Source: Acidiferrobacteraceae bacterium
GTDB taxonomy: Bacteria > Pseudomonadota > Gammaproteobacteria > Acidiferrobacterales > JAJDNE01
DNA length: 56,704 nt
Assembly: GCA_037388825.1 (NCBI GenBank)
Contig: JARRJV010000010.1
Coordinates: 1-56,704 of the forward strand
Reading direction: 5' to 3'
Of this stretch, positions 32,356-42,944 are shown in pieces (positions within the stretch are counted from its first letter, which is position 1; every line of letters starts with the position of its first letter). The translations under genes and the position numbers were made by a program. The notes under the pieces were generated by a model. The model was given only the letters and a program-made list of their open reading frames with translations, searched no databases and was not told the DNA's origin.

Positions 32356-33843
32356 TCAGCCGCTTACCTCGGGGTAGGGATAGAGTTCCATCAGGGGCCT
32401 GCTGCGACCGGCGGTTTGTACGATGCGCGCATGGCGGCGGGTGAATTCCCGTGCATTGGTCAAACCACAGGAATGGGCGATCACGTCGAGGTCATTGTTG
32501 ATGCCGATGGCATAGGTTGCGACTCGCTTGGCCTTGTCCATGGGTACCAGGCCCTTCTGCAGGCGCGGATTGTGGGTGGCGACCCCGGTCGGACAGGTGT
32601 CCTTGTGGCACTGAAGCGACTGGATGCAGCCCAGGGCGAACATGAAACCACGGGCGCTGACGGTGAAGTCCGCGCCCACGCAAAGGGCCCAGGCCGCCCG
32701 GTCCGAAGTGACCAGCTTGCCCGAAGCGATTACGCGAATCCGGTCTCGCAAACCGGCAGCGATGAGCACATCGACGGCGATGGGCAGCGCCTCGCTCAGG
32801 GGCAAACCTACGTGGTCCGCCAGGACCTGCGGCGCAGCACCCGATCCCCCATCACCCCCGTCCACGGTCATGAAGTCTGGTGCGCTGTCTTCGCCGCGAC
32901 GGTGGACAGCCTCGCACAACGCGGTCGGGTAACTTCCATCGGCAATCACGGTCTTGAAACCCACCGGGCGTCCCGTCACGTCGCGTATGCGCGCGATCAT
33001 GTCCAACAGGTGGTCCGGTGAATCGATCTCCACATGCCGATTGGGGCTGCGCGATGCATGGTGCGCCGGAATGCCCCGAATCTCGGCAATCTCCTCGGTC
33101 ACCTTGGCCGCCGGCAGGATCCCGCCTTTTCCGGGCTTGGCCCCCTGCGCCAGCTTGATCTCGAAGGCGTTCACATACTGAGACACCTCGCGCAGACGCG
33201 CCTCGCTCAGGCGCCCGTTCTCGTCGCGCACCCCGTACTTTGCCGTGCCGATCTGGAAGATGCGGTCGCAGTCCCCTTCGAGATGATACCTGGTCAGCCC
33301 ACCCTCACCCGTGTTCATCCACACGCCCGCGGCGGCAGCGCCACGCGACAGGGCCTCCACCGCCACCGAGGAAAGCGCGCCGAAACTCATTCCGGAAATG
33401 TTGACGATGCGCCTGGCGGTAAATGGCTTGTCGCAGCCGGGACCGATGACCATGGGTGGCGACGGCGTGCAGTCATCCTCCAGCTTGGGATAGGGCGAGT
33501 TGATGAATATTACGGATCCCGGCTCGCGCATGTCTGCCCCGGTCCCAAAGCCGATGATTCCACCCAGACCCTTGGCGGTGCGGTAGACCCAAGTCCGCGC
33601 CATGCGGTTGAAGGGCATCTCCTCGCGATCATTGGCGAACAGATACTGGCGCAGGTTCACGCCCAGACTTTCCATGAAATAGCGCAGGCGTCCAATGACC
33701 GGGAAATTGCGCCGAACCGCGTCCTCGGTCTGGGTTACGTCCCGAATGAACATCACAAACAGGATGGCAAGGATCGCCCCGGCCACCCAACCGAGAATCA
33801 CGATTACCCAATGGATGGTCGTGATGAGAGAGCTGACTTCCAT
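32356..33843 (-). CDS. FMN-binding glutamate synthase family protein (stand-alone, membrane-anchored)
   Basis: N-terminal TM; [56 protein letters not shown] [3Fe-4S] motif. Confidence 0.93.
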
Positions 33844-33919
33844 GATCTTCCTGCGTTTGTCTTTTTATATAGTTTCTGTAGACGGACAAATCGCTATTCG
33901 GTTCCCTTCAACTATTCGG

Positions 33920-35251
33920 TCAATCGCCCGCCGGCTCCCGTGCCGCCTCCCGGCCACGTCGTTCATTGACCGTTGTCAGCATCGCCGCGCCGATGACGAA
34001 ATAGGCGGCGGTGACGAGAATCGCCAGGCGATGGTTTCCCCGGGACAGCACCGTGACTGCGCCGTAGGATACAGGTCCGACAATGGCCGCAAGCTTCACC
34101 GCCAGGCCCCACATACCGAAGAATTCGCCCGAGCGGTCCGGCGGCGAGAATTGCCCCACCAGCGCCCGGCTGGCCGACTGGCTGGAGCCCATCGCCAGGC
34201 CGATGAGATTGGCGCTGACCCAGAAACCGGTACGATCGCTGCTCAGGTAGGCCAGCACCAGCGCACTGGTCCACAACAGCAGGGTCAGAATGAGTGTACG
34301 AATCGAACCGATCCGGTCCTGAACCCGGCCAAACAGAAATGCGCCGACGGCCGAGGTGACATTCACCACCATGATCATGACCAACGATTCCTGGGTACTG
34401 AAGCCCATCACTTCGCGCGCATAGACGGCCGCCAGCACGATGACCGTATAGATTCCACAATGGAAAACCGTGACGGTAAGCAGAAACCGGAACAGGTCCC
34501 GGTACCGGCGCACGTGATGCCAGGTGGAGGCCACCCGATGAAAGCCGATGCCGATATAGCCATACCCCCGGGGCAGGGTTTGACCAACGGCGCGCTCGCG
34601 CAGCCAGATAAAGGTAGGCAAAGATGCCAGCGCAAAGGTGCCGGCAGTAATGAGCATGGTCACCGGGACATACTGTGCGGCCCCCTGGCCATGGCCCTCG
34701 GCCCAGTGCACATAGGCAACGCAAAGACCCAGGGCCAGCAGACCGCCGAAGTACCCGAGAGACCAGCCATAGCCGGAGATTCGACCCATGTCTTCCTGCG
34801 GCGCAATCTCCGGCAGGAAGGCGGCGATCAGATTCTCTCCCGCGGAAAACATGATCGTGGCCAGAATGACACAGATCATTCCGCTTGCCACGTCCCCCGG
34901 CCCAATCAGTGCAAGCAAGGCGGTAAAACTGACACAGCCAATCGTGGTCGCGGCCAGAAAACGTTTCTTGTGCGCGCCGAAATCCGCAATCGCTCCCACG
35001 ACGGGGGCGCTCAACAGGACGATGCCGTTGGCAACACCCATGGCCAGCGTCCAGTACAGAGTCGCCAGGCCGTGGTTGCCGACACCGGCGGCCACTACCG
35101 AGACAAAGTAGGCATTGAAAATTGCCGTCAGGACGATGGTCGTGTAGCCGGAATTGGCGAAGTCATACATCGCCCAGGCGAAGATCTCGATGCGGGGCGC
35201 GAGTTGCGTCGCCCCGGCAATGCTGGCTCCCTGCGTGTCTTTGGACGTCAC
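33920..35251 (-). CDS. MFS transporter (UMF1/Atg22-like)
   Basis: AWAMYDFANSGYTT, SAPVVGAIAD, GRISGYGWSLGYFGG, QSASRAL, GEFFGMW. Confidence 0.92.
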   Translation of the reverse strand: MTSKDTQGASIAGATQLAPRIEIFAWAMYDFANSGYTTIVLTAIFNAYFVSVVAAGVGNHGLATLYWTLAMGVANGIVLLSAPVVGAIADFGAHKKRFLAATTIGCVSFTALLALIGPGDVASGMICVILATIMFSAGENLIAAFLPEIAPQEDMGRISGYGWSLGYFGGLLALGLCVAYVHWAEGHGQGAAQYVPVTMLITAGTFALASLPTFIWLRERAVGQTLPRGYGYIGIGFHRVASTWHHVRRYRDLFRFLLTVTVFHCGIYTVIVLAAVYAREVMGFSTQESLVMIMVVNVTSAVGAFLFGRVQDRIGSIRTLILTLLLWTSALVLAYLSSDRTGFWVSANLIGLAMGSSQSASRALVGQFSPPDRSGEFFGMWGLAVKLAAIVGPVSYGAVTVLSRGNHRLAILVTAAYFVIGAAMLTTVNERRGREAAREPAGD

Positions 35252-35305
35252 GAGAGGGGCTGCGAATGGAAAGACAACAAGTTGATGTGCCCGGTAGGCA
35301 CCGGT

Positions 35306-35653
35306 TCAGCCGGAGACCGCCTCGCTGTTCTCGTGCGGCGCGGGCGACTCGCGCTCGGCGATTTTGAGGACCACATTCAGGATATCGGAGTTCTCGTTTT
35401 CGTTGATCCGATAATACACCTCTTTGCCGCGCTTCTCGCAAACGAGCAGTCCCGTGTTGCGCAGCACCTTGAGGTGGTGGGAAATGGCGGGACGACTGAG
35501 ACGAAAGACAGCAGCAATGTCGGTTACGCAAATCTCCTCGTGGGGATCAAACAGAAGCAGGATCTTCTGACGGGTCGCGTCGCCGAGGGCCGAAAATACC
35601 GCGGTGTTGCGCTCCCATTGTGGCGACAGATGTTCGACGAAATTCTTGTTCAT
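35306..35653 (-). CDS. ArsR/SmtB family transcriptional regulator
   Basis: FSALGDATRQKIL, EICVTDIA, LSRPAISHHLKVLRNTGLL, GKEVYY; start ATG35653. Confidence 0.93.
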   Translation of the reverse strand: MNKNFVEHLSPQWERNTAVFSALGDATRQKILLLFDPHEEICVTDIAAVFRLSRPAISHHLKVLRNTGLLVCEKRGKEVYYRINENENSDILNVVLKIAERESPAPHENSEAVSG

Positions 35654-35706
35654 GGAAGCGAACGACGGACCAAAACAGCTCCGCTCCAGTACTACCGACA
35701 GCCCCC

Positions 35707-35743
35707 ATCCTATCCGAGTCGACCTGAATGTCAATATATTTGA
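35707..35743 (-). promoter_or_regulatory. Sigma-70 promoter and putative ArsR operator
   Basis: Minus strand TTGACA (35734-35729)-N16-TAGGAT (35712-35707); a TCAA-N5-TTGA inverted repeat (35731-35743) overlaps the -35. Confidence 0.7.
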
Positions 35744-35746
35744 ATT

Positions 35747-36787
35747 TTATACTTTACTTATTTTGCCCAGTTTCCCGGCGGATGTTTTGCTGGGTCCCAG
35801 CAGGACCAGCGAAAAATAGCGATTGTCCGGTTCGTAGTGCTCCCGTATTTCCAGTCCCGCGAGCCCCAGCAGTCGCTCCAGCGCGGTCACCGTGAATTTT
35901 CGGCTGATCTCCGTGCGAATGGTCTCGCCCTGTTCAAACTCCACCTCAAGGTCCAGCCCGTCGATGCGGACCGATTGTGCACGCCGCGACTCCAGATGCA
36001 TCTCGATCTGGGACTCGGCCTCATTGAACCATGCGCGATGACAAAACGCCGCCGGGTCGAAACGCGCATCCAGCTCGCGATTGATGACCTGCAGAACATT
36101 CAGATTGAACTCGGCGGTCACTCCCTGCTTGTCGTTGTATGCCGCGTTCAAAACCTCGTGATTCTTTACTCGATCGACGCCGAGCAGGAGCAGATCCGAC
36201 GGTCCCATGGCCCGCCGCACCTGCCGCAGAAAACTTTGCGCCTCCAGGTCCGTCAGGTTCCCCAGAGTTCCGCCAAGGAATACGAATAGACGCTTGCCCG
36301 CGACATAGGACAACACCTCCAGCCCGTGACCGTAATCGCCAACCAGGCCGTCGATGGTCAACCACGCGAAGTTGTCCAGAAGTCGCGCCCCCGCCTCCCG
36401 CACCACTTCTTCGCACACGTCCAGCGGCTGGTACCGCACGGGGTGTCCAAGTTCGGAACAGGCCTGCAGCAGATGTTCGGTCTTGCGCGAAGTCCCGCTG
36501 CCCAGTTCGATAATGGTATCCGGGCGGGCCGCCTCGACAATCGCGCGCGCCGATGTCTCGAGCAGTGCCGTTTCCGTTCTCGCGGGGTAGTACTCGGGCA
36601 CTTCACAAATGAGGTCGTACAGGTATGAACCCCGCTCATCATAGAAGTACTTGGGCGGGATCCGCTTCGGGTTTGCACGCAAACCCGTTCTCACGTCTGT
36701 GGCGAGACTTGCGGCTGGAACATCGTCGCCGAATCTTGATACCCGAAATCGCTGGCTCACAGCGACTTCGCTCGCTCCTGTCTTCAT
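35747..36787 (-). CDS. egtD: L-histidine N-alpha-methyltransferase (hercynine synthesis)
   Basis: PPKYFYDERGS, PEYYPARTE, ELGSGTSRKT, AAYND..GVTAEFNLN, IEMHL, RTEISRKFT; start ATG36787. Confidence 0.95.
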   Translation of the reverse strand: MKTGASEVAVSQRFRVSRFGDDVPAASLATDVRTGLRANPKRIPPKYFYDERGSYLYDLICEVPEYYPARTETALLETSARAIVEAARPDTIIELGSGTSRKTEHLLQACSELGHPVRYQPLDVCEEVVREAGARLLDNFAWLTIDGLVGDYGHGLEVLSYVAGKRLFVFLGGTLGNLTDLEAQSFLRQVRRAMGPSDLLLLGVDRVKNHEVLNAAYNDKQGVTAEFNLNVLQVINRELDARFDPAAFCHRAWFNEAESQIEMHLESRRAQSVRIDGLDLEVEFEQGETIRTEISRKFTVTALERLLGLAGLEIREHYEPDNRYFSLVLLGPSKTSAGKLGKISKV

Positions 36788-37017
36788 CGAATTCTCCGTT
36801 CGGGTGCAATTCCCTGTTTGTTCTTGCGCAAGGATTAAAACGAATATTCGCTCGTACGGCAAAACAATACGAAAGAACATCCCCGGTATCCCTTGTCACA
36901 GTGCTGTAATTCAATTGTAGGACCGCGGCGCACACCCCAGGTTCTCCCGATTGTCGGTCGTTTTTTCGGATACCCGCCCTGCTTGTCTGCCTGGAATATT
37001 TGCGCGATAGTCGCAGC

Positions 37018-37794
37018 ATGTGCCGCCTCGCCGCCTATCTCGGGCCCTCGGTGCCCCTCAACAGATTCCTGCTCGAACCGCCCCACAGCCTGGTGGAACA
37101 ATCCTGGGCGCCGCGGGAAATGCGGGAGGCGAGATTGAACGCGGACGGATTCGGATTCGGCTGGTTTACCGGACCAGAAGATCCGCCGTCGGTCTACACC
37201 AACCCCATGCCCATCTGGACCGATCCAAACCTCGCAGGCCTTGGACGCGCCCTGGAATCTGGCTTGTGGCTGGCCTATGTCCGGAGCGCCACCCGTAGAA
37301 CCGACGTATCCCATGCCAACACCCAGCCCTTTGCCGGTGCATCGCTGCTCTTCATGCACAACGGATACATTGATCTGTTCGGCGAAACGCTGCGTCACCA
37401 TATCCGCCACGCACTTTGCACGGAATGCGAACGGACCATTCACGGAAACACGGACTCCGAATATCTGTTCGCACTGCTGCGCCAGCAACTGCTTGACGGT
37501 CGATCCCTGGAATCGGGAATGATGCAACTCTTCGATCTGCTAACGCAGTGGGCCGCTGATGTACGGCTGCTTCTCAATTTCATCATCACTGACGGCACGC
37601 GCATCGTTGCAACGCGACATGCCATTAACGGGGAATGTCCATCACTGTATTACAGTGATCGCGTCGCCGATCTCGAAGGTGCCTTGTGTGTTGCCTCTGA
37701 ACCCCTCACGGATCGGGACCAATGGGAGTCCGTACCGGAACACAGCCTGGTGCTTCTGGATCGTGACAAGGGAATCGTCGTGCGAGCGCTATGA
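37018..37794 (+). CDS. egtC: Ergothioneine biosynthesis class-II glutamine amidotransferase/hydrolase
   Basis: MCRL N-terminal nucleophile Cys, NADGFGFGW, VRSAT, NTQPF, MHNG, GNTDSE, VASEPL. Confidence 0.92.
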   Translation: MCRLAAYLGPSVPLNRFLLEPPHSLVEQSWAPREMREARLNADGFGFGWFTGPEDPPSVYTNPMPIWTDPNLAGLGRALESGLWLAYVRSATRRTDVSHANTQPFAGASLLFMHNGYIDLFGETLRHHIRHALCTECERTIHGNTDSEYLFALLRQQLLDGRSLESGMMQLFDLLTQWAADVRLLLNFIITDGTRIVATRHAINGECPSLYYSDRVADLEGALCVASEPLTDRDQWESVPEHSLVLLDRDKGIVVRAL

Positions 37795-38951
37795 CCGGCT
37801 CTGCATTGAAAGAACTGGAAGACAGCCAGTCTCGCCTTCTCGACCTCGTTTCCGGAATCCCTGCGACCGATCTTAGCCGCCAGTATCACCCGGATCTGAG
37901 TCCCCTGGTGTGGCATCTCGGCCACACGGCCTTCATGGAGGCATTCTGGATCCGCAAGACCGTGATGGGAGACAGGCGAATCACTGAACCGCTGGAATCG
38001 CTTTATCGGCCGGAACTGAGTCCGAAGACCCGACGCGGGGTCCGGGCCGGTGATCCGGAACAGGTGCTGTGCTTCGCATCCCGGTTATACAGGGAGCATC
38101 TGGATCTTCTCGCCGAGCTGCAGGCGCAAAGGAGTGCTCATGCGCTGCTGCAGAATGACTACCTGGTGCAGTTTCTGGCGCAGCACAACCAGCAACATGC
38201 AGAAACCGTATCCCAGGTACTTCAGCAGCGTGCAAAGGAGCAAAATGACCCGCAAGGGTTTCCCATGCCCTCACCCGATCGCGAACCGACAAGGGTACAT
38301 GAGCTTTCTGCACAGGAGATCTGGCTGGGCAGTGACGATTCCGCGTTGGCGTACGACAACGAACGACCGCGACATCGACAAAAGGTCGATGCATTCGCCA
38401 TCGCGGCAGCACCCGTCAGTAATGCACAGTATCTCGCCTTTATCCTTGACGGAGGCTACGCCGACCGCCGGTTCTGGAGTGTGGAAGGCTGGAACTGGCG
38501 CACCGAGTCGGCACGCACGCTTCCGGATTCCTGGTGCCGCACCGGACCTGAAGACATCTGTTGCATGGCGCCCTCCGGGCCGGAGCCCGTACAGGGCACG
38601 GATTCGGTGACTGGCCTGGCGTTCTACGAGGCCGAAGCCTATGCGCGATACGCCGATGCCCGCCTGCCGTGCGAGGTGGAATGGGAAACCGCCGCCCAGC
38701 GGATTCCCGATTTCCTCGCCAGCAGCGGTCGGGCATGGGAATGGTGCGCGAATGCCTTCTATCCCTACCCCGGCTTCCAGCCCTTCCCCTACGACGGCTA
38801 TTCCCAGCCGTGGTTCGACGGGAAACATCGCTCCCTGCGCGGCGCAAGCCGGTTCACCGGCGCGAAACTGCGGCGCGCGACTTTCCGTAATTTTTACCTG
38901 CCCGACAAGCGTCATGTTTTCGCGGGCGCGCGTCTCGCCTACGATCGCTAG
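37791..38951 (+). CDS. egtB: Non-heme iron sulfoxide synthase (DinB_2 + FGE-sulfatase fold)
   Basis: SPLVWHLGH and QHNQQHAET (3-His Fe triad, HxxxHxE), RLPCEVEWE, WEWC, YDGYSQPWF, FRNFY...FAGARLA; ATGA overlap with egtC. Confidence 0.9.
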   Translation: MTGSALKELEDSQSRLLDLVSGIPATDLSRQYHPDLSPLVWHLGHTAFMEAFWIRKTVMGDRRITEPLESLYRPELSPKTRRGVRAGDPEQVLCFASRLYREHLDLLAELQAQRSAHALLQNDYLVQFLAQHNQQHAETVSQVLQQRAKEQNDPQGFPMPSPDREPTRVHELSAQEIWLGSDDSALAYDNERPRHRQKVDAFAIAAAPVSNAQYLAFILDGGYADRRFWSVEGWNWRTESARTLPDSWCRTGPEDICCMAPSGPEPVQGTDSVTGLAFYEAEAYARYADARLPCEVEWETAAQRIPDFLASSGRAWEWCANAFYPYPGFQPFPYDGYSQPWFDGKHRSLRGASRFTGAKLRRATFRNFYLPDKRHVFAGARLAYDR

Positions 38952-39059: not shown

Positions 39060-40544
39060 ATGAGAACTCAAATGCGCCCCTGGCTATCCCTTCACGCCGC
39101 GATCAAGGCGGCAATCGTCGTCCTTCTGCTGTCACCCATTCTTGCCATGGCCTCCGATGTGGTCATGGGTGGCGGCTCACGCCTGGACCTGACCGCAAGC
39201 CCCTTCGGCATTTTCTCCCTGATTGCCTTTGTCGTGTCCTATGGTTTCGTTATCAACGAGGAGTTCCTGGATCTTCGAAAATCGAAAACCGTCATCGTCG
39301 CGGCAGGCTTCATCTGGTTGCTGGTATCCATTGCCTACACCCTGGAAGGTCGCAGTGCGGAGGCGGCTGAAGCCCTGCGCCATAACCTCCTGGAATACGC
39401 CGAGCTGCTGCTGTTCCTGCTTGCAGCCATGACCTATATCAACACCATGGAAGAGCGGCGCGTCTTCCGCGCCCTGCGCGCGTGGCTGGTGTCCAGCGGA
39501 TTCTCTTTGCGAACCATCTTCTGGCTGACCGGATTGATGGCATTCCTGATTTCACCAGTGGCCGACAACCTCACTACGGCCCTGCTTATGGGAGCCGTTG
39601 CCCTGGCCGTGGGCGGTAACAACAAACGTTTCGTAACCCTTTCCTGTATCAATATTGTTGTGGGTGCCAACGCCGGCGGTGCGTTCAGCCCCTTCGGCGA
39701 TATCACGACCCTGATGGTCTGGCAGAAAGGCGTGGTGCATTTCTGGCAGTTCTTTGACCTGTTCATCCCCTCCTTCGTGAACTGGTTCGTCCCGGCACTG
39801 ATCATGTCCTTCGCCGTGCAATCGGGAAAACCCGAGGCGGTAGCGGAAGAAATCCGGATCAAACGCGGCGGCATGACGATCGTCGGCCTATTCCTGTTCA
39901 CGATTGCGATGACCGTCACCATGCACAACTACCTGGACATGCCTCCCTTTATCGGAATGATGACGGGTCTGGGTCTCTTGAAGGTCTACGGCTATTTCAT
40001 TCGTCGTGACGAACTTCGCACCATGTCGTTCGCCATGGGGCCCGAGTTCGATGCGCTGCAGGAACGCTTCCCGGTCAAGCCGGCGGTGAAGCCGTTCGAC
40101 ATATTCATCAGCATGAAACGGGCCGAATGGGATACGCTGATGTTCTTCTACGGGGTTGTACTCTCCGTCGGCGGTCTGGGTCTGATCGGCTATCTCGCGC
40201 ACCTGTCCCACTTCATGTATGTCGGTCTCGGCGCCACCGAGGCCAATATCCTCGTCGGCATTCTCTCGTCCATCGTTGACAATATTCCGGTGATGTTCGC
40301 CGTCCTGACCATGCACCCGGACATGTCGGTAGGCCAGTGGCTGCTTGTGACGCTTACCGCCGGGGTGGGCGGTTCCCTGCTCTCCATCGGGTCTGCCGCG
40401 GGCGTTGCGCTGATGGGCCAAGCCCGTGGCGTATACACCTTCTTCGCCCATCTGCGCTGGAGCTGGGCCGTGGCGCTGGGCTACGCGGGCAGTATCTGGA
40501 TACACTTCATGATCAATACTACGGTCCTGCACACGGTACCCTAG
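39060..40544 (+). CDS. nhaD: NhaD family Na+/H+ antiporter
   Basis: LDLRKSK, YAELLLFLLAAMTYIN, SPVADNLTTALLM, FSPFGDITTLMVWQ, SSIVDNIP, GGSLLSIGSAAG. Start 39060 or 39072. Confidence 0.93.
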   Translation: MRTQMRPWLSLHAAIKAAIVVLLLSPILAMASDVVMGGGSRLDLTASPFGIFSLIAFVVSYGFVINEEFLDLRKSKTVIVAAGFIWLLVSIAYTLEGRSAEAAEALRHNLLEYAELLLFLLAAMTYINTMEERRVFRALRAWLVSSGFSLRTIFWLTGLMAFLISPVADNLTTALLMGAVALAVGGNNKRFVTLSCINIVVGANAGGAFSPFGDITTLMVWQKGVVHFWQFFDLFIPSFVNWFVPALIMSFAVQSGKPEAVAEEIRIKRGGMTIVGLFLFTIAMTVTMHNYLDMPPFIGMMTGLGLLKVYGYFIRRDELRTMSFAMGPEFDALQERFPVKPAVKPFDIFISMKRAEWDTLMFFYGVVLSVGGLGLIGYLAHLSHFMYVGLGATEANILVGILSSIVDNIPVMFAVLTMHPDMSVGQWLLVTLTAGVGGSLLSIGSAAGVALMGQARGVYTFFAHLRWSWAVALGYAGSIWIHFMINTTVLHTVP

Positions 40545-40587
40545 ACAGAGACCGTCGCGACGCATCGAATCACAACCGGGAGGAAGC

Positions 40588-42012
40588 ATGAACGATGCGA
40601 TACATTCCCTGACCGCCCTCCTTGGGCAGGTTGACGATTTCCTGTGGGGCAACTACGTCACTCTCGGTGCCCTTTTGGGAACCGGTCTGTATCTCACCTG
40701 GCGCATGCGCGGCATACAGCTGCGTGGTTTCCGCCACTCGATTCACCTGATCCAGGGGCGCTACAGCCGCCCCGAGGACGTGGGCGAGGTTTCCCATTTT
40801 CAGGCCCTGGCCACTGCCCTGTCGGCAACCGTTGGCACCGGCAACATCGCCGGTGTTGCCACGGCGATCACCCTGGGCGGACCGGGAGCCCTGTTCTGGA
40901 TGTGGGTGACCGCGGCTCTGGGCATGGCAACCAAGTTCACGGAATGCACCCTTTCCCTGAAGTTCCGCGAAGTGGATCCGGACGGCCACGTCGCCGGTGG
41001 GCCCATGTACACCCTGCTGCATGGCCTGAAAATGCGGCGCACCGCGATCGCGTTTGCGAGCTTCGCACTGATCGCCTCATTTGGCATCGGCAATATGGTG
41101 CAGGCCAATTCCGTAGTCGACGGCCTGGGTTATGTCTTCGCACCACTACTGAAGACCGATGCCGGGACCCTGCAGCAGGCCCGGGAGGCGTTCAATGCCC
41201 AGTATGGCTGGCTCGTGGGCTCGGGCATGGCCGTACTCGTGGGCCTGGTCATCATTGGTGGCGTGAAGCGAATCGCCCGCGTCGCCAGCGCACTGGTTCC
41301 ATTCATGGCCATTCTCTATATCGCAAGCGCGCTGATCGTGCTTGGGAACCATGTGAGCGAGATTCCGGCGGCCGTTGCCACGATCTTCAACTACGCGCTC
41401 AACCCCTGGTCCGTGGGCGGCGCGGTGGTTGGCGAGGCAATGCGCTGGGGCGTGGCGCGCGGTCTGTTTTCGAACGAGGCAGGCCTCGGTTCCTCACCCA
41501 TGGCCCACGCGGCCGCACGAACGAACGAACCCGTGCGCGAGGGTCTGGTGGCAATGATGGAACCCTTCATCGACACCCTGTTGATCTGCTCCATGACCGG
41601 GCTTGTGATCGTTGTCAGCGGCGCCTGGGGCGCCGGCCGACCCGCAGGGCTTGAGGGCGCGGCGCTGACCGCATACGCCTTTGGGAAAACGCTGGACCAT
41701 ACCGGATCCATCGTCGTCGGCATCGGCCTGATGCTGTTTGCCTTTTCGACCATGATCTCCTGGTCCTACTATGGGGATCGCTCGGCCCATTTCCTGTTCG
41801 GCGAGAAAGCGGTGTTACGCTACCGAATCGTCTATATGATCCTGGTCGCAGTGGGTGCCGCCGTTCCACTGAAGCTGGTCTGGAATATCGCCGACATCAC
41901 CAATATCCTCATGGCACTCCCCAATCTTCTCAGCCTGATTCTTCTTGCGGGTCTGGTAAAACGGCTGCATGACCAGTACTTCAGCGCCCATCGCGCGTCA
42001 TCCAGCGCCTGA
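40588..42012 (+). CDS. Alanine/glycine:cation symporter (AlsT family)
   Basis: ALSATVGTGNIAGVA, GGPGALFWMW, GGPMY, GVARGLFSNEAGLGS, MEPFIDT, MALPNL. Confidence 0.95.
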   Translation: MNDAIHSLTALLGQVDDFLWGNYVTLGALLGTGLYLTWRMRGIQLRGFRHSIHLIQGRYSRPEDVGEVSHFQALATALSATVGTGNIAGVATAITLGGPGALFWMWVTAALGMATKFTECTLSLKFREVDPDGHVAGGPMYTLLHGLKMRRTAIAFASFALIASFGIGNMVQANSVVDGLGYVFAPLLKTDAGTLQQAREAFNAQYGWLVGSGMAVLVGLVIIGGVKRIARVASALVPFMAILYIASALIVLGNHVSEIPAAVATIFNYALNPWSVGGAVVGEAMRWGVARGLFSNEAGLGSSPMAHAAARTNEPVREGLVAMMEPFIDTLLICSMTGLVIVVSGAWGAGRPAGLEGAALTAYAFGKTLDHTGSIVVGIGLMLFAFSTMISWSYYGDRSAHFLFGEKAVLRYRIVYMILVAVGAAVPLKLVWNIADITNILMALPNLLSLILLAGLVKRLHDQYFSAHRASSSA

Positions 42013-42101
42013 ACGCGGATACATGGGATTACTAGCCCTGGTGTAAGCTTCAGGGTTTCATGTTTCAGGCAACATCGGCGCGCGCAGGAAGGACACAATT
42101 C

Positions 42102-42944
42102 ATGGGACAGAAACCGGCACCTCTCCAAACCGTCACCGACGATGTGCGCCGCGCACTGGAGGAGGACGTGGGTTCGGGAGATCTGACCGCCGAACTGATT
42201 CCCGCCTCCGAAAATGCGGTGGCCCACGTGGTCACGCGCGAGGACATGGTGGTTTGCGGCCGCGCCTGGTTCGATGAATGCTTTCACCAACTGGACTCCG
42301 GGCTCCGCATTGAGTGGAAGGTCGACGATGGAGACCTGCTTGCCGCGGGCACCGTGCTATGCACGCTCGAGGGAAATGCGCGGGCGCTGCTAACCGGCGA
42401 GCGCGCCGCACTGAACTTTCTGCAACTGCTTTCCGGAACCGCCACCATCTCCCACCGCTACAGTTCTGCCGTAGCCGGAACCGGTGCCGCGGTTCTGGAT
42501 ACGCGCAAGACACTGCCCGGACTGCGTCAGGCGCAGAAGTATGCCGTTCGTAGCGGTGGCGCCCGGAATCATCGCATCGGTTTGTTCGACGCCATCCTCA
42601 TCAAGGACAATCACATCCGTGCCGCCGGGTCAGTGACCGCGGCACTGGAACAGGCGCAAGGCATTGGCCCCAAAGGAACACTGATCGAGATCGAAGTGGA
42701 AAACCTGGAACAGCTCCAGGAGGCTCTGGATGCCGGGGCACGTCGTGTGTTGCTGGACAACTTCAGCGTGGCCGAGTTGCGGCAGGCGGTAAAGCAGAAC
42801 GGCGGGCGTGCGGAACTGGAGGCATCTGGTGGCGTCTCCCTCGACAACGTCCGCCAAATCGCCGAGACCGGTGTGGACTACATTTCCGTCGGCGAACTGA
42901 CCAAGCACGTGCACGCGATCGATCTGTCCATGCGCTTTGACTAG
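42102..42944 (+). CDS. nadC: Nicotinate-nucleotide diphosphorylase (carboxylating)
   Basis: ALEEDVGSGDLT, GERAALNFLQ, LDTRKTLPGLR, NHRIGLFDAILIKDNH, EASGG; likely start ATG42102. Confidence 0.97.
   Translation: MGQKPAPLQTVTDDVRRALEEDVGSGDLTAELIPASENAVAHVVTREDMVVCGRAWFDECFHQLDSGLRIEWKVDDGDLLAAGTVLCTLEGNARALLTGERAALNFLQLLSGTATISHRYSSAVAGTGAAVLDTRKTLPGLRQAQKYAVRSGGARNHRIGLFDAILIKDNHIRAAGSVTAALEQAQGIGPKGTLIEIEVENLEQLQEALDAGARRVLLDNFSVAELRQAVKQNGGRAELEASGGVSLDNVRQIAETGVDYISVGELTKHVHAIDLSMRFD

Follow-up and report, generated by a model that had tools for sequence, protein, structure and literature searches.

Which thiol supplies the sulfur of ergothioneine when the synthase that would install it keeps the gene neighbourhood of gamma-glutamylcysteine-dependent enzymes, yet has lost several of the residues that hold this donor in mycobacteria? 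The question is raised by a three-gene cluster on a 56,704-nt stretch of DNA of an Acidiferrobacteraceae bacterium (GenBank assembly GCA_037388825.1, contig JARRJV010000010.1, positions 1 to 56,704; this whole stretch is called the window below), in which egtD is divergent from egtC and an egtB-like gene. The usual account of ergothioneine biosynthesis comprises a five-gene mycobacterial route, based on gamma-glutamylcysteine and EgtA to EgtE, and a two-gene route, based on cysteine, EgtB and EgtD. The locus represents a third widespread layout, consisting of egtD, egtC and egtB without egtA or egtE and with a rebuilt donor pocket. The logic of such a pathway is already known, and what is new here is an uncharacterised EgtB lineage that combines association with EgtC and replaced donor residues.

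Taken together, the evidence favors, with a probability of about 0.6, a pathway to ergothioneine that draws its gamma-glutamylcysteine from glutathione metabolism and relies on a final lyase encoded outside the cluster. In this pathway, EgtD would trimethylate histidine to hercynine, and the Fe(II)- and O2-dependent EgtB-like enzyme would join the sulfur of a gamma-glutamyl thiol, most likely gamma-glutamylcysteine from the cell's glutathione pathway, to C2 of hercynine. EgtC, encoded on the same message, would then hydrolyse glutamate off gamma-glutamyl-hercynylcysteine sulfoxide, leaving a pyridoxal phosphate-dependent C–S lyase, unlinked to the cluster, to free ergothioneine. Three elements of this scheme are inferred: which thiol donates the sulfur, that a GCS2-family ligase makes gamma-glutamylcysteine, and the participation of the lyase.

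A compact EgtB-like protein outside the named classes

We refer to the EgtB-like protein of the window as the query, to the compact (~385 amino acids, aa) gammaproteobacterial group that includes it as Qa, and to a longer (410–450 aa) related group as Qw. The query belongs to the NHISS superfamily, with matches to PF12867 and PF03781 and a three-histidine iron site, and its gene is the only one of its kind in the genome. As first described from the sequence (hereafter the initial annotation), it is 386 aa long and displays both the His triad (H45/H132/H136, invariant) and a YSQP tyrosine motif, which here reads PYDGYSQP and includes Y334 and Y337. Neither of the relevant NCBIfam cut-offs is reached: the query scores 295 bits against a cut-off of 420 for SenA (NF041186), its best NCBIfam score, and 276 bits against 360 for EgtB (TIGR03440; 268.5 bits in the genome search). 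Its best PDB match is M. thermoresistibile EgtB (MthEgtB; 5e-50), in an alignment made of two pieces, and a 47-residue segment of this enzyme (positions 309–355, chain 4x8b_A) is missing in the query; SenA and type II EgtB structures come next, at ~1e-40. The query FRNFYLPDKR aligns to FRNWDHPIRR of MthEgtB, so that the substitution pointed out in the initial annotation is real and the mycobacterial sequence given there, RNWDHPYR, was nearly right. An AlphaFold2 model (predicted local distance difference test score, pLDDT, 94.2) yielded template-modelling (TM) scores of 0.86 to MthEgtB (4x8b), 0.83 to type II EgtB, and 0.82–0.84 to SenA, i.e., the predicted structure superposes about equally on all three.

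A 17-position composite motif has been established for sulfoxide and selenoxide synthases by Kayrouz et al. (PMC11030361), and reads xSDH--RRHQHYYNWDR in type I, xSHHYYRRHQHxYNFFx in type II, and xNEH--HRHxHYYN(F/Y)(F/Y)R in SenA. In this 2024 scheme, 4,580 sequences stay in the category 'other', many of them with divergent motifs that have no assignment. The query motif, SHH--KRHQHYYNFYK, corresponds to S37, H42, H45, a two-position gap, K79, R82, H132, Q135, H136, Y334, Y337, N367, F368, Y369, and K373, and fits none of the named classes (I, II, IV, SenA, OvsA, or OvoA). Compared to type I, 5 of the 16 specified positions differ; the type I catalytic Tyr377 aligns with Y334, a tyrosine found without exception in Qa, Qw, type I, and SenA. 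A motif outside all named classes and scores below both the EgtB and SenA cut-offs bear out the initial description of an atypical sulfoxide synthase.

The two sides of the putative active site differ in what they indicate. A bulky aromatic residue at the position equivalent to 368 has been tied to the use of hercynine, rather than histidine, as the acceptor (PMC11030361), and the query combines an aromatic F368 with the other hercynine-side features, namely H45/H132/H136, Y334, Y337, and N367. Judging from these residues, we consider the predicted acceptor, hercynine attacked at C2, to be settled. On the donor side, D416 of MthEgtB hydrogen-bonds the glutamyl part of gamma-glutamylcysteine with R420 beside it, and R90, D48, and S43 hold the cysteinyl part (PMC11237966). 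The corresponding positions are Y369, K373, R82, H42, and S37 in the query, in which R87 is also replaced by K79. The donor is thus predicted to be bound by H42, K79, Y369, and K373 in place of the mycobacterial D48, R87, D416, and R420. Across Qa, the R420 position is a lysine in 81% of sequences, next to a mostly acidic residue 372.

Distribution and phylogeny of the Q lineage

The query is not a one-off, but a member of a large lineage that occurs in ~10% of the gammaproteobacterial genomes sampled and has relatives among cyanobacterial EgtBs. Hundreds of ~385-aa proteins carry its motif at 40–62% identity; those with a named source come from Acidiferrobacterales, Thioalkalivibrio, Nitrococcus, and Arenicellales, and their annotation at NCBI is limited to 'SUMF1/EgtB/PvdO family'. 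One carrier of this motif, in its protein P0112, is the cultured Thioalkalivibrio sulfidiphilus. A Qa-type protein is encoded in ~40 of 400 evenly drawn gammaproteobacterial genomes, a tally that is the only analysis to include the unpublished genomes G583 and G435. Qw members include the EgtBs of Nostoc, Limnospira, Oscillatoria, and Lyngbya, and their motif differs from that of Qa at two positions, 368, which is W, and 373, which is non-basic (V/T/I). No characterisation of the Qa or Qw lineage was found in the literature searched, including a survey from October 2026 (PMC13674229).

We evaluated the position of these proteins in two trees, from which partial or degenerate sequences (P0261, P0265, P0209, P0219, L021, and L043) were left out. 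With FastTree (324 sequences, rooted on OvoA), Qa was recovered with a support of 93 and nested in a Qw grade, the whole Qa+Qw group (support 88) being sister to types I and II. With IQ-TREE in quick mode (LG+C20, 98 sequences), type II branched first, followed by Qa and then by a Qw grade from which SenA and type I emerge. Where the Q lineage branches with respect to types I, II, and SenA hence differs between the two trees, as does the support for Qa monophyly (93 in one, 14 in the other). Both trees, however, recovered type I, type II, and SenA as clades that exclude the query (FastTree/IQ-TREE supports of 97/98, 77/100, and 99/100, respectively). The initial annotation would have been refuted had the query fallen in a characterised clade with the same residues, and it does not.

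A metagenomic protein search returned many ~745-aa proteins in which EgtD (PF10017) is fused to an EgtB (P0297, P0306, P0311, P0312, P0326, and others). When long proteins were trimmed to their last 450 aa, 12 of those returned retained no part of the motif but the type I C-terminal YYNWDR, which suggests that they are such fusions.

EgtC as the constant partner of Q-type EgtB

Gene context was evaluated in 15-kb neighbourhoods of 40 gammaproteobacterial matches and in metagenomes, a sampling that covers a single class plus metagenomes and in which related genomes are not independent. In all 33 Qa-motif loci, egtC was the gene directly preceding egtB in the same orientation, at a distance of 12–295 nt, and egtD was divergent, as in the window, in 24 of them. 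Among the labelled outgroups, which are distant relatives (≤37% identity) among the matches listed, egtC neighbours the synthase gene in 16 of 22 type I loci, compared to 0 of 42 for type II and 0 of 9 for SenA. In metagenome loci, it was found beside 10 of the 13 Qw genes with enough flanking sequence and 17 of 30 type I genes. In the window, egtC and egtB overlap (Table 1), an arrangement that is predicted to couple their translation. No further conserved pathway gene, such as a peptidase or a senB- or senC-like gene, was detected in the 33 related neighbourhoods.

The other seven of the 40 neighbourhoods correspond to degenerate paralogues with an incomplete or lost His triad and no egt neighbours. 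DinB_2/FGE-like paralogues at loci L134–L139 (genomes G556, G367, G413, G631, G615, and G455), 32–37% identical to the query, have lost both the His triad and the tyrosines, also lack egt neighbours, and are presumably non-catalytic or repurposed.

The EgtC protein itself is clearly recognizable, with 248.7 bits to TIGR03442 (cut-off 218.65) and structural matches to PDB 3mdn (1.3e-30) and to M. smegmatis EgtC (4zfk, 4.3e-19). Its most likely start is the ATG at 37018 rather than the upstream TTG, which gives the N-terminus M-C-R. All 88 EgtCs that accompany an EgtB of type I, Qa, or Qw share this N-terminus, with Cys2 as the nucleophile; M1-C2-R3 and a further 25 positions carry the same residue in the three groups, at a conservation of 90% or more. 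No fixed difference separates Q-linked from type-I-linked EgtCs, which argues for an EgtC substrate of the same kind. In a tree of 90 EgtCs, the clades correspond to the EgtB type encoded alongside (supports of 98 for type-I-linked, 99 for Qa-linked, and 95 for Qw-linked EgtCs), and Qa- and Qw-linked EgtCs group together against the type-I-linked ones (support 98). The EgtC and EgtB trees thus match, revealing a strict and ancient partnership, and the conserved residues suggest that an active amidohydrolase with an unchanged pocket accompanied the Q-type EgtB lineage throughout. The proposal that the presence of EgtC implies a gamma-glutamyl route, made initially for this single locus, is reinforced by the coupling in 33 of 33 relatives and by the matching trees.

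EgtD is likewise well supported (TIGR03438, 359.6 bits against a cut-off of 290.9; PF10017, 1.3e-107) and aligns over the whole domain to M. smegmatis EgtD (PDB 4uy6, ~2.5e-72). IEMHL and TEIS of the EgtD in the window stand opposite IEMWL and TEVS of this enzyme, so that the Met and Glu highlighted in the initial annotation are indeed retained; we take them to be the Met252 and Glu282 positions tied to histidine specificity. The true start of egtD is probably the ATG at 36787 (346 aa), with the first ATG, at 36880, lying upstream of it, because a GGAG is found 7–8 nt before the former and homologues align only from residue ~30–58.

Weighing the candidate sulfur donors

The donor residues and the gene context point in different directions, the former being partly type-II-like and the latter resembling that of gamma-glutamylcysteine-dependent enzymes, as far as can be judged from sequence. 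We consider that the context outweighs the residues because the egtC linkage is invariant over a wide phylogenetic span and reinforced by the likely translational coupling, because EgtC appears catalytically intact and unchanged, and because Qa retains a basic side chain in place of R420 (K in 81%). Cyanobacteria are known ergothioneine producers that have egtB, egtC, and egtD without egtE (PMC10295655; PMC3826126), and they support the proposed pathway because several genera (Nostoc, Limnospira, and others) carry the sister Qw type.

The genome (2.49 Mb in 136 contigs, rated 100% complete) encodes a clear GshB (258 bits) and two GCS2-family ligases, i.e., a YbdK-family protein and a divergent 474-aa 'putative glutamate-cysteine ligase', and production of gamma-glutamylcysteine is expected on the basis of these three genes. 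The GCS2-family pair represents the sole glutamate-cysteine-ligase-like genes in the genome; the gene positions recorded are C57:2867-3991 and C8:43762-45186 (L005 and L006), and C15:41280-41798 (L099). The supply by GshA suggested in the initial annotation has to be abandoned in favor of GshB and this pair, since no E. coli-type GshA (PF04262) is found in the genome. No EgtA match above cut-off was obtained genome-wide. The same holds for EgtE, the best class-V aminotransferases in the genome being IscS and an unclassified 454-aa enzyme, and there is, as first noted, no identifiable candidate for the final C–S lyase.

Several observations weigh against gamma-glutamylcysteine as the donor. Both glutamyl-holding residues are replaced (D416 by Y369 and R420 by K373), and position 369 varies between Y, F, and H within the clade, which indicates that it is not an essential hydrogen-bond donor. 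The D48 equivalent is H42, as in the cysteine-using type II enzymes, and R87 is K79. Neither canonical GshA nor EgtA is found genome-wide. Ergothioneine synthesis in Synechocystis is reported to be supported by glutathione itself and not by gamma-glutamylcysteine (review PMC10295655), and no in vitro characterisation of any Qa or Qw member was found in the literature searched.

Part of this pattern would be accommodated if the donor were glutathione or another gamma-glutamyl thiol, with EgtC acting on hercynyl-glutathione sulfoxide and a dipeptidase acting before the lyase. The entire Q lineage has substitutions at R87 and at the glutamyl-binding pair, the strict linkage to egtC nonetheless requires a substrate with a gamma-glutamyl amide, GshB is encoded in the genome, and the reported use of glutathione itself rather than its precursor in Synechocystis (PMC10295655) can be set beside the Qw-type EgtBs of several cyanobacterial genera. 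However, the Synechocystis result is genetic and cited at second hand through a review, and the EgtB of this organism is not confirmed as belonging to Qw. Moreover, EgtC does not differ by any fixed residue from its type-I-linked counterparts, and the scheme would need an extra peptidase step for which the 33 neighbourhoods offer no conserved gene. We therefore regard glutathione as an unlikely donor, and give the same low credence to the broader proposal that Qa and Qw together form a distinct functional class using glutathione or another gamma-glutamyl thiol instead of gamma-glutamylcysteine or cysteine. If true, a glutathione-type Q lineage would constitute a third sulfur-donor route to ergothioneine, and would explain the reported glutathione dependence of its synthesis in cyanobacteria.

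Free cysteine, used as in type II with EgtC dispensable (processing a side product, for example, or serving as a structural partner), seems to us just as improbable as glutathione. This alternative draws on the type-II-like S37, H42, H45, and aromatic pair 368/369, on the loss of the glutamyl-binding Asp, and on the many bacteria that make ergothioneine with EgtB and EgtD alone. It nevertheless fails to explain why egtC is coupled to egtB in 33 of 33 Qa and 10 of 13 Qw loci, why the two genes of the window overlap in ATGA, why the EgtC tree mirrors that of EgtB, and why the catalytic residues of EgtC are conserved, when none of the 42 type II loci among the matches listed has egtC; in addition, the query has the type I catalytic Tyr and no type II Tyr-Tyr pair.

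A SenA-like selenoxide synthase making selenoneine from a selenosugar, to which the compact, SenA-like length, the top NCBIfam score of 295 bits, and an N-F-Y at 367–369 matching the SenA N(F/Y)(F/Y) might point, is very unlikely because no selD was found (best TIGR00476 match genome-wide, 58 bits against a cut-off of 125, in a genome rated 100% complete) and because the SenA signature N, E, H, M is replaced by S37, H42, K79, and Q135, with a score well short of the 420 bits required for SenA, no neighbour resembling senB or senC in the window or the 33 related loci, and SenA forming a separate clade (support 100). The initial annotation had left open whether the donor carries S or Se: Se is now very improbable given the missing selenophosphate synthetase and the S/H/K found in place of the SenA N/E/H, which leaves gamma-glutamylcysteine, glutathione, and cysteine as the candidate sulfur donors.

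With gamma-glutamylcysteine as the favored donor, knowing the thiol of one member would settle the ergothioneine donor in these abundant environmental bacteria, and probably in cyanobacteria. The Q lineage also bears on how donor specificity is encoded in the EgtB family, and on the debate over whether the use of gamma-glutamylcysteine or of cysteine is ancestral. Once a member is characterised, the NCBI EgtB model could be extended to these 'SUMF1/EgtB/PvdO family' proteins, and the compact enzyme may be of interest for ergothioneine engineering in glutathione-producing hosts such as E. coli.

Locus layout and genomic setting

All three open reading frames (ORFs) of the divergent cluster described in the initial annotation were confirmed (Table 1). 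As reported there, no egtA, egtE, senB, or senC is adjacent, and none was detected in the window; for senB, for which no search with a dedicated model was made, no glycosyltransferase neighbour was seen.

Table 1 Features of the ergothioneine-type cluster, in window coordinates
Feature	Position	Strand	Remarks
egtD, L-histidine N-alpha-methyltransferase (hercynine synthase)	35747..36880	minus	longest ORF 377 aa; TIGR03438, PF10017
Divergent intergenic region egtD/egtC	36788..37017		230 bp when the egtD start is ATG 36787
egtC, class-II (Ntn) amidohydrolase	37018..37794	plus	TIGR03442; ORF open from TTG 37000
ATGA overlap of egtC stop codon and egtB start codon	37791..37794	plus	sequence gcgctATGAccggc
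egtB-like non-haem iron sulfoxide synthase (predicted), 386 aa, compact Qa lineage	37791..38951	plus	DinB_2 + FGE-sulfatase domains

The intergenic region between egtD and egtC presumably holds both divergent promoters. A consensus scan found no sigma-70-like site in it, the sole motif-like element was a weak palindrome at 36903–36926, and no regulatory motif was identified there by the consensus scan, the palindrome, or the motif of relatives. This last motif, the 12-mer ATAGGCTA[AC]CAT, is conserved in ~15 of the 33 gammaproteobacterial relatives (L108, L112, L113, L109, L117, L140, and about 9 others), in which it precedes egtC by 40–110 nt and always has the orientation of this gene. It may serve the egtCB promoter as a common -10 region or as an operator; it is absent from the window (36788–37017 checked).

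The cluster is flanked by clpB, a gene with a glutamate-synthase domain, a major facilitator superfamily (MFS) transporter gene, nhaD, a sodium:alanine symporter gene, and nadC, with nhaD, the symporter gene, and nadC located after egtB (39060–42944). Housekeeping genes recur as neighbours of the module among relatives, including nadC (17 related loci), ampD/ampE, phoB/phoR, cysS, and ppx, and the sodium:alanine symporter is syntenic with the cluster in 10 related loci. These neighbours and the nadC/symporter synteny suggest that the module resides in a vertically inherited chromosomal region. Horizontal transfer of the cluster was considered and rejected, as GC content is even across the window and synteny with nadC extends to 17 related loci.

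Just downstream of egtD, an ATG22-like MFS transporter gene (33920–35251, minus strand) has its own promoter-like site, TTGACA-16-TAGGAT, at 35734–35707, and is not conserved beside the cluster among relatives; that it exports ergothioneine would be a guess. A 682-aa ORF antisense to this gene (33695–35743) has no family match and is probably spurious.

The host is a sediment-type gammaproteobacterium. Its ClpB is closest to that of 'Acidithiobacillales bacterium SG8_45' (86%), followed by Acidiferrobacterales metagenome-assembled genomes (84%), which indicates an uncultured relative of these sulfur-oxidiser lineages.

Comparison with known systems

Among characterised enzymes, type I EgtB (M. 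thermoresistibile and M. smegmatis, EC 1.14.99.50, 4X8B/4X8D; egtABCDE pathway) is the best PDB match of the query by both sequence and fold (5e-50, TM 0.86). The two have in common the DinB_2 and FGE-like fold, the three-His triad, Y377, Y380, N414, S43, and R90 (Y334, Y337, N367, S37, and R82 in the query), and the linkage to egtC and egtD. The query differs from type I by D48 to H, R87 to K, W415 to F, D416 to Y, and R420 to K, and by the lack of the 47-residue segment. It also fails to reach the TIGR03440 cut-off, is excluded from the type I clade (support 98), and comes from a cluster and genome that, unlike the type I pathway, have no egtA or egtE match.

Type II EgtB (Chloracidobacterium thermophilum, CthEgtB, EC 1.14.99.51, 6QKI/6O6L; TM 0.83) resembles the query in the S-H-H motif start, in Q135, and in having an aromatic residue where type I has Asp416. 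In contrast to type II, the query has no Tyr93/Tyr94 insertion, E and L being aligned to the CthEgtB YY pair, and it keeps the type I catalytic Tyr (Y334), which type II lacks; its lineage always lies beside egtC, compared to 0 of 42 type II loci among the matches listed, and the type II clade is separate (support 100).

SenA (Variovorax paradoxus, 8K5I; TM 0.82–0.84) is similarly compact, without the type I insertion, and has the N-(F/Y)-(F/Y) motif as well as an acidic-basic pair after the Pro, as does the query. However, N63, E68, the His of 'HR', and the Met of SenA are S, H, K, and Q in the query, the terminal R of the motif is K, and the query is linked to egtC, belongs to a separate clade, and comes from a genome without a selD match.

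The Qw EgtBs of cyanobacteria (Nostoc, Limnospira, Oscillatoria, and Lyngbya) differ from the query by their length (410–450 aa), the retained insertion, W at 368, and V/T/I at 373, where Qa mostly has K. Ergothioneine production is known for them at the organism level, and no enzyme assay was found in the literature searched. They nonetheless share with the query the motif S-H-H-K-R-H-Q-H-Y-Y-N-x-Y and the linkage to egtC and egtD, and their associated EgtCs group with the Qa-linked ones against those linked to type I.

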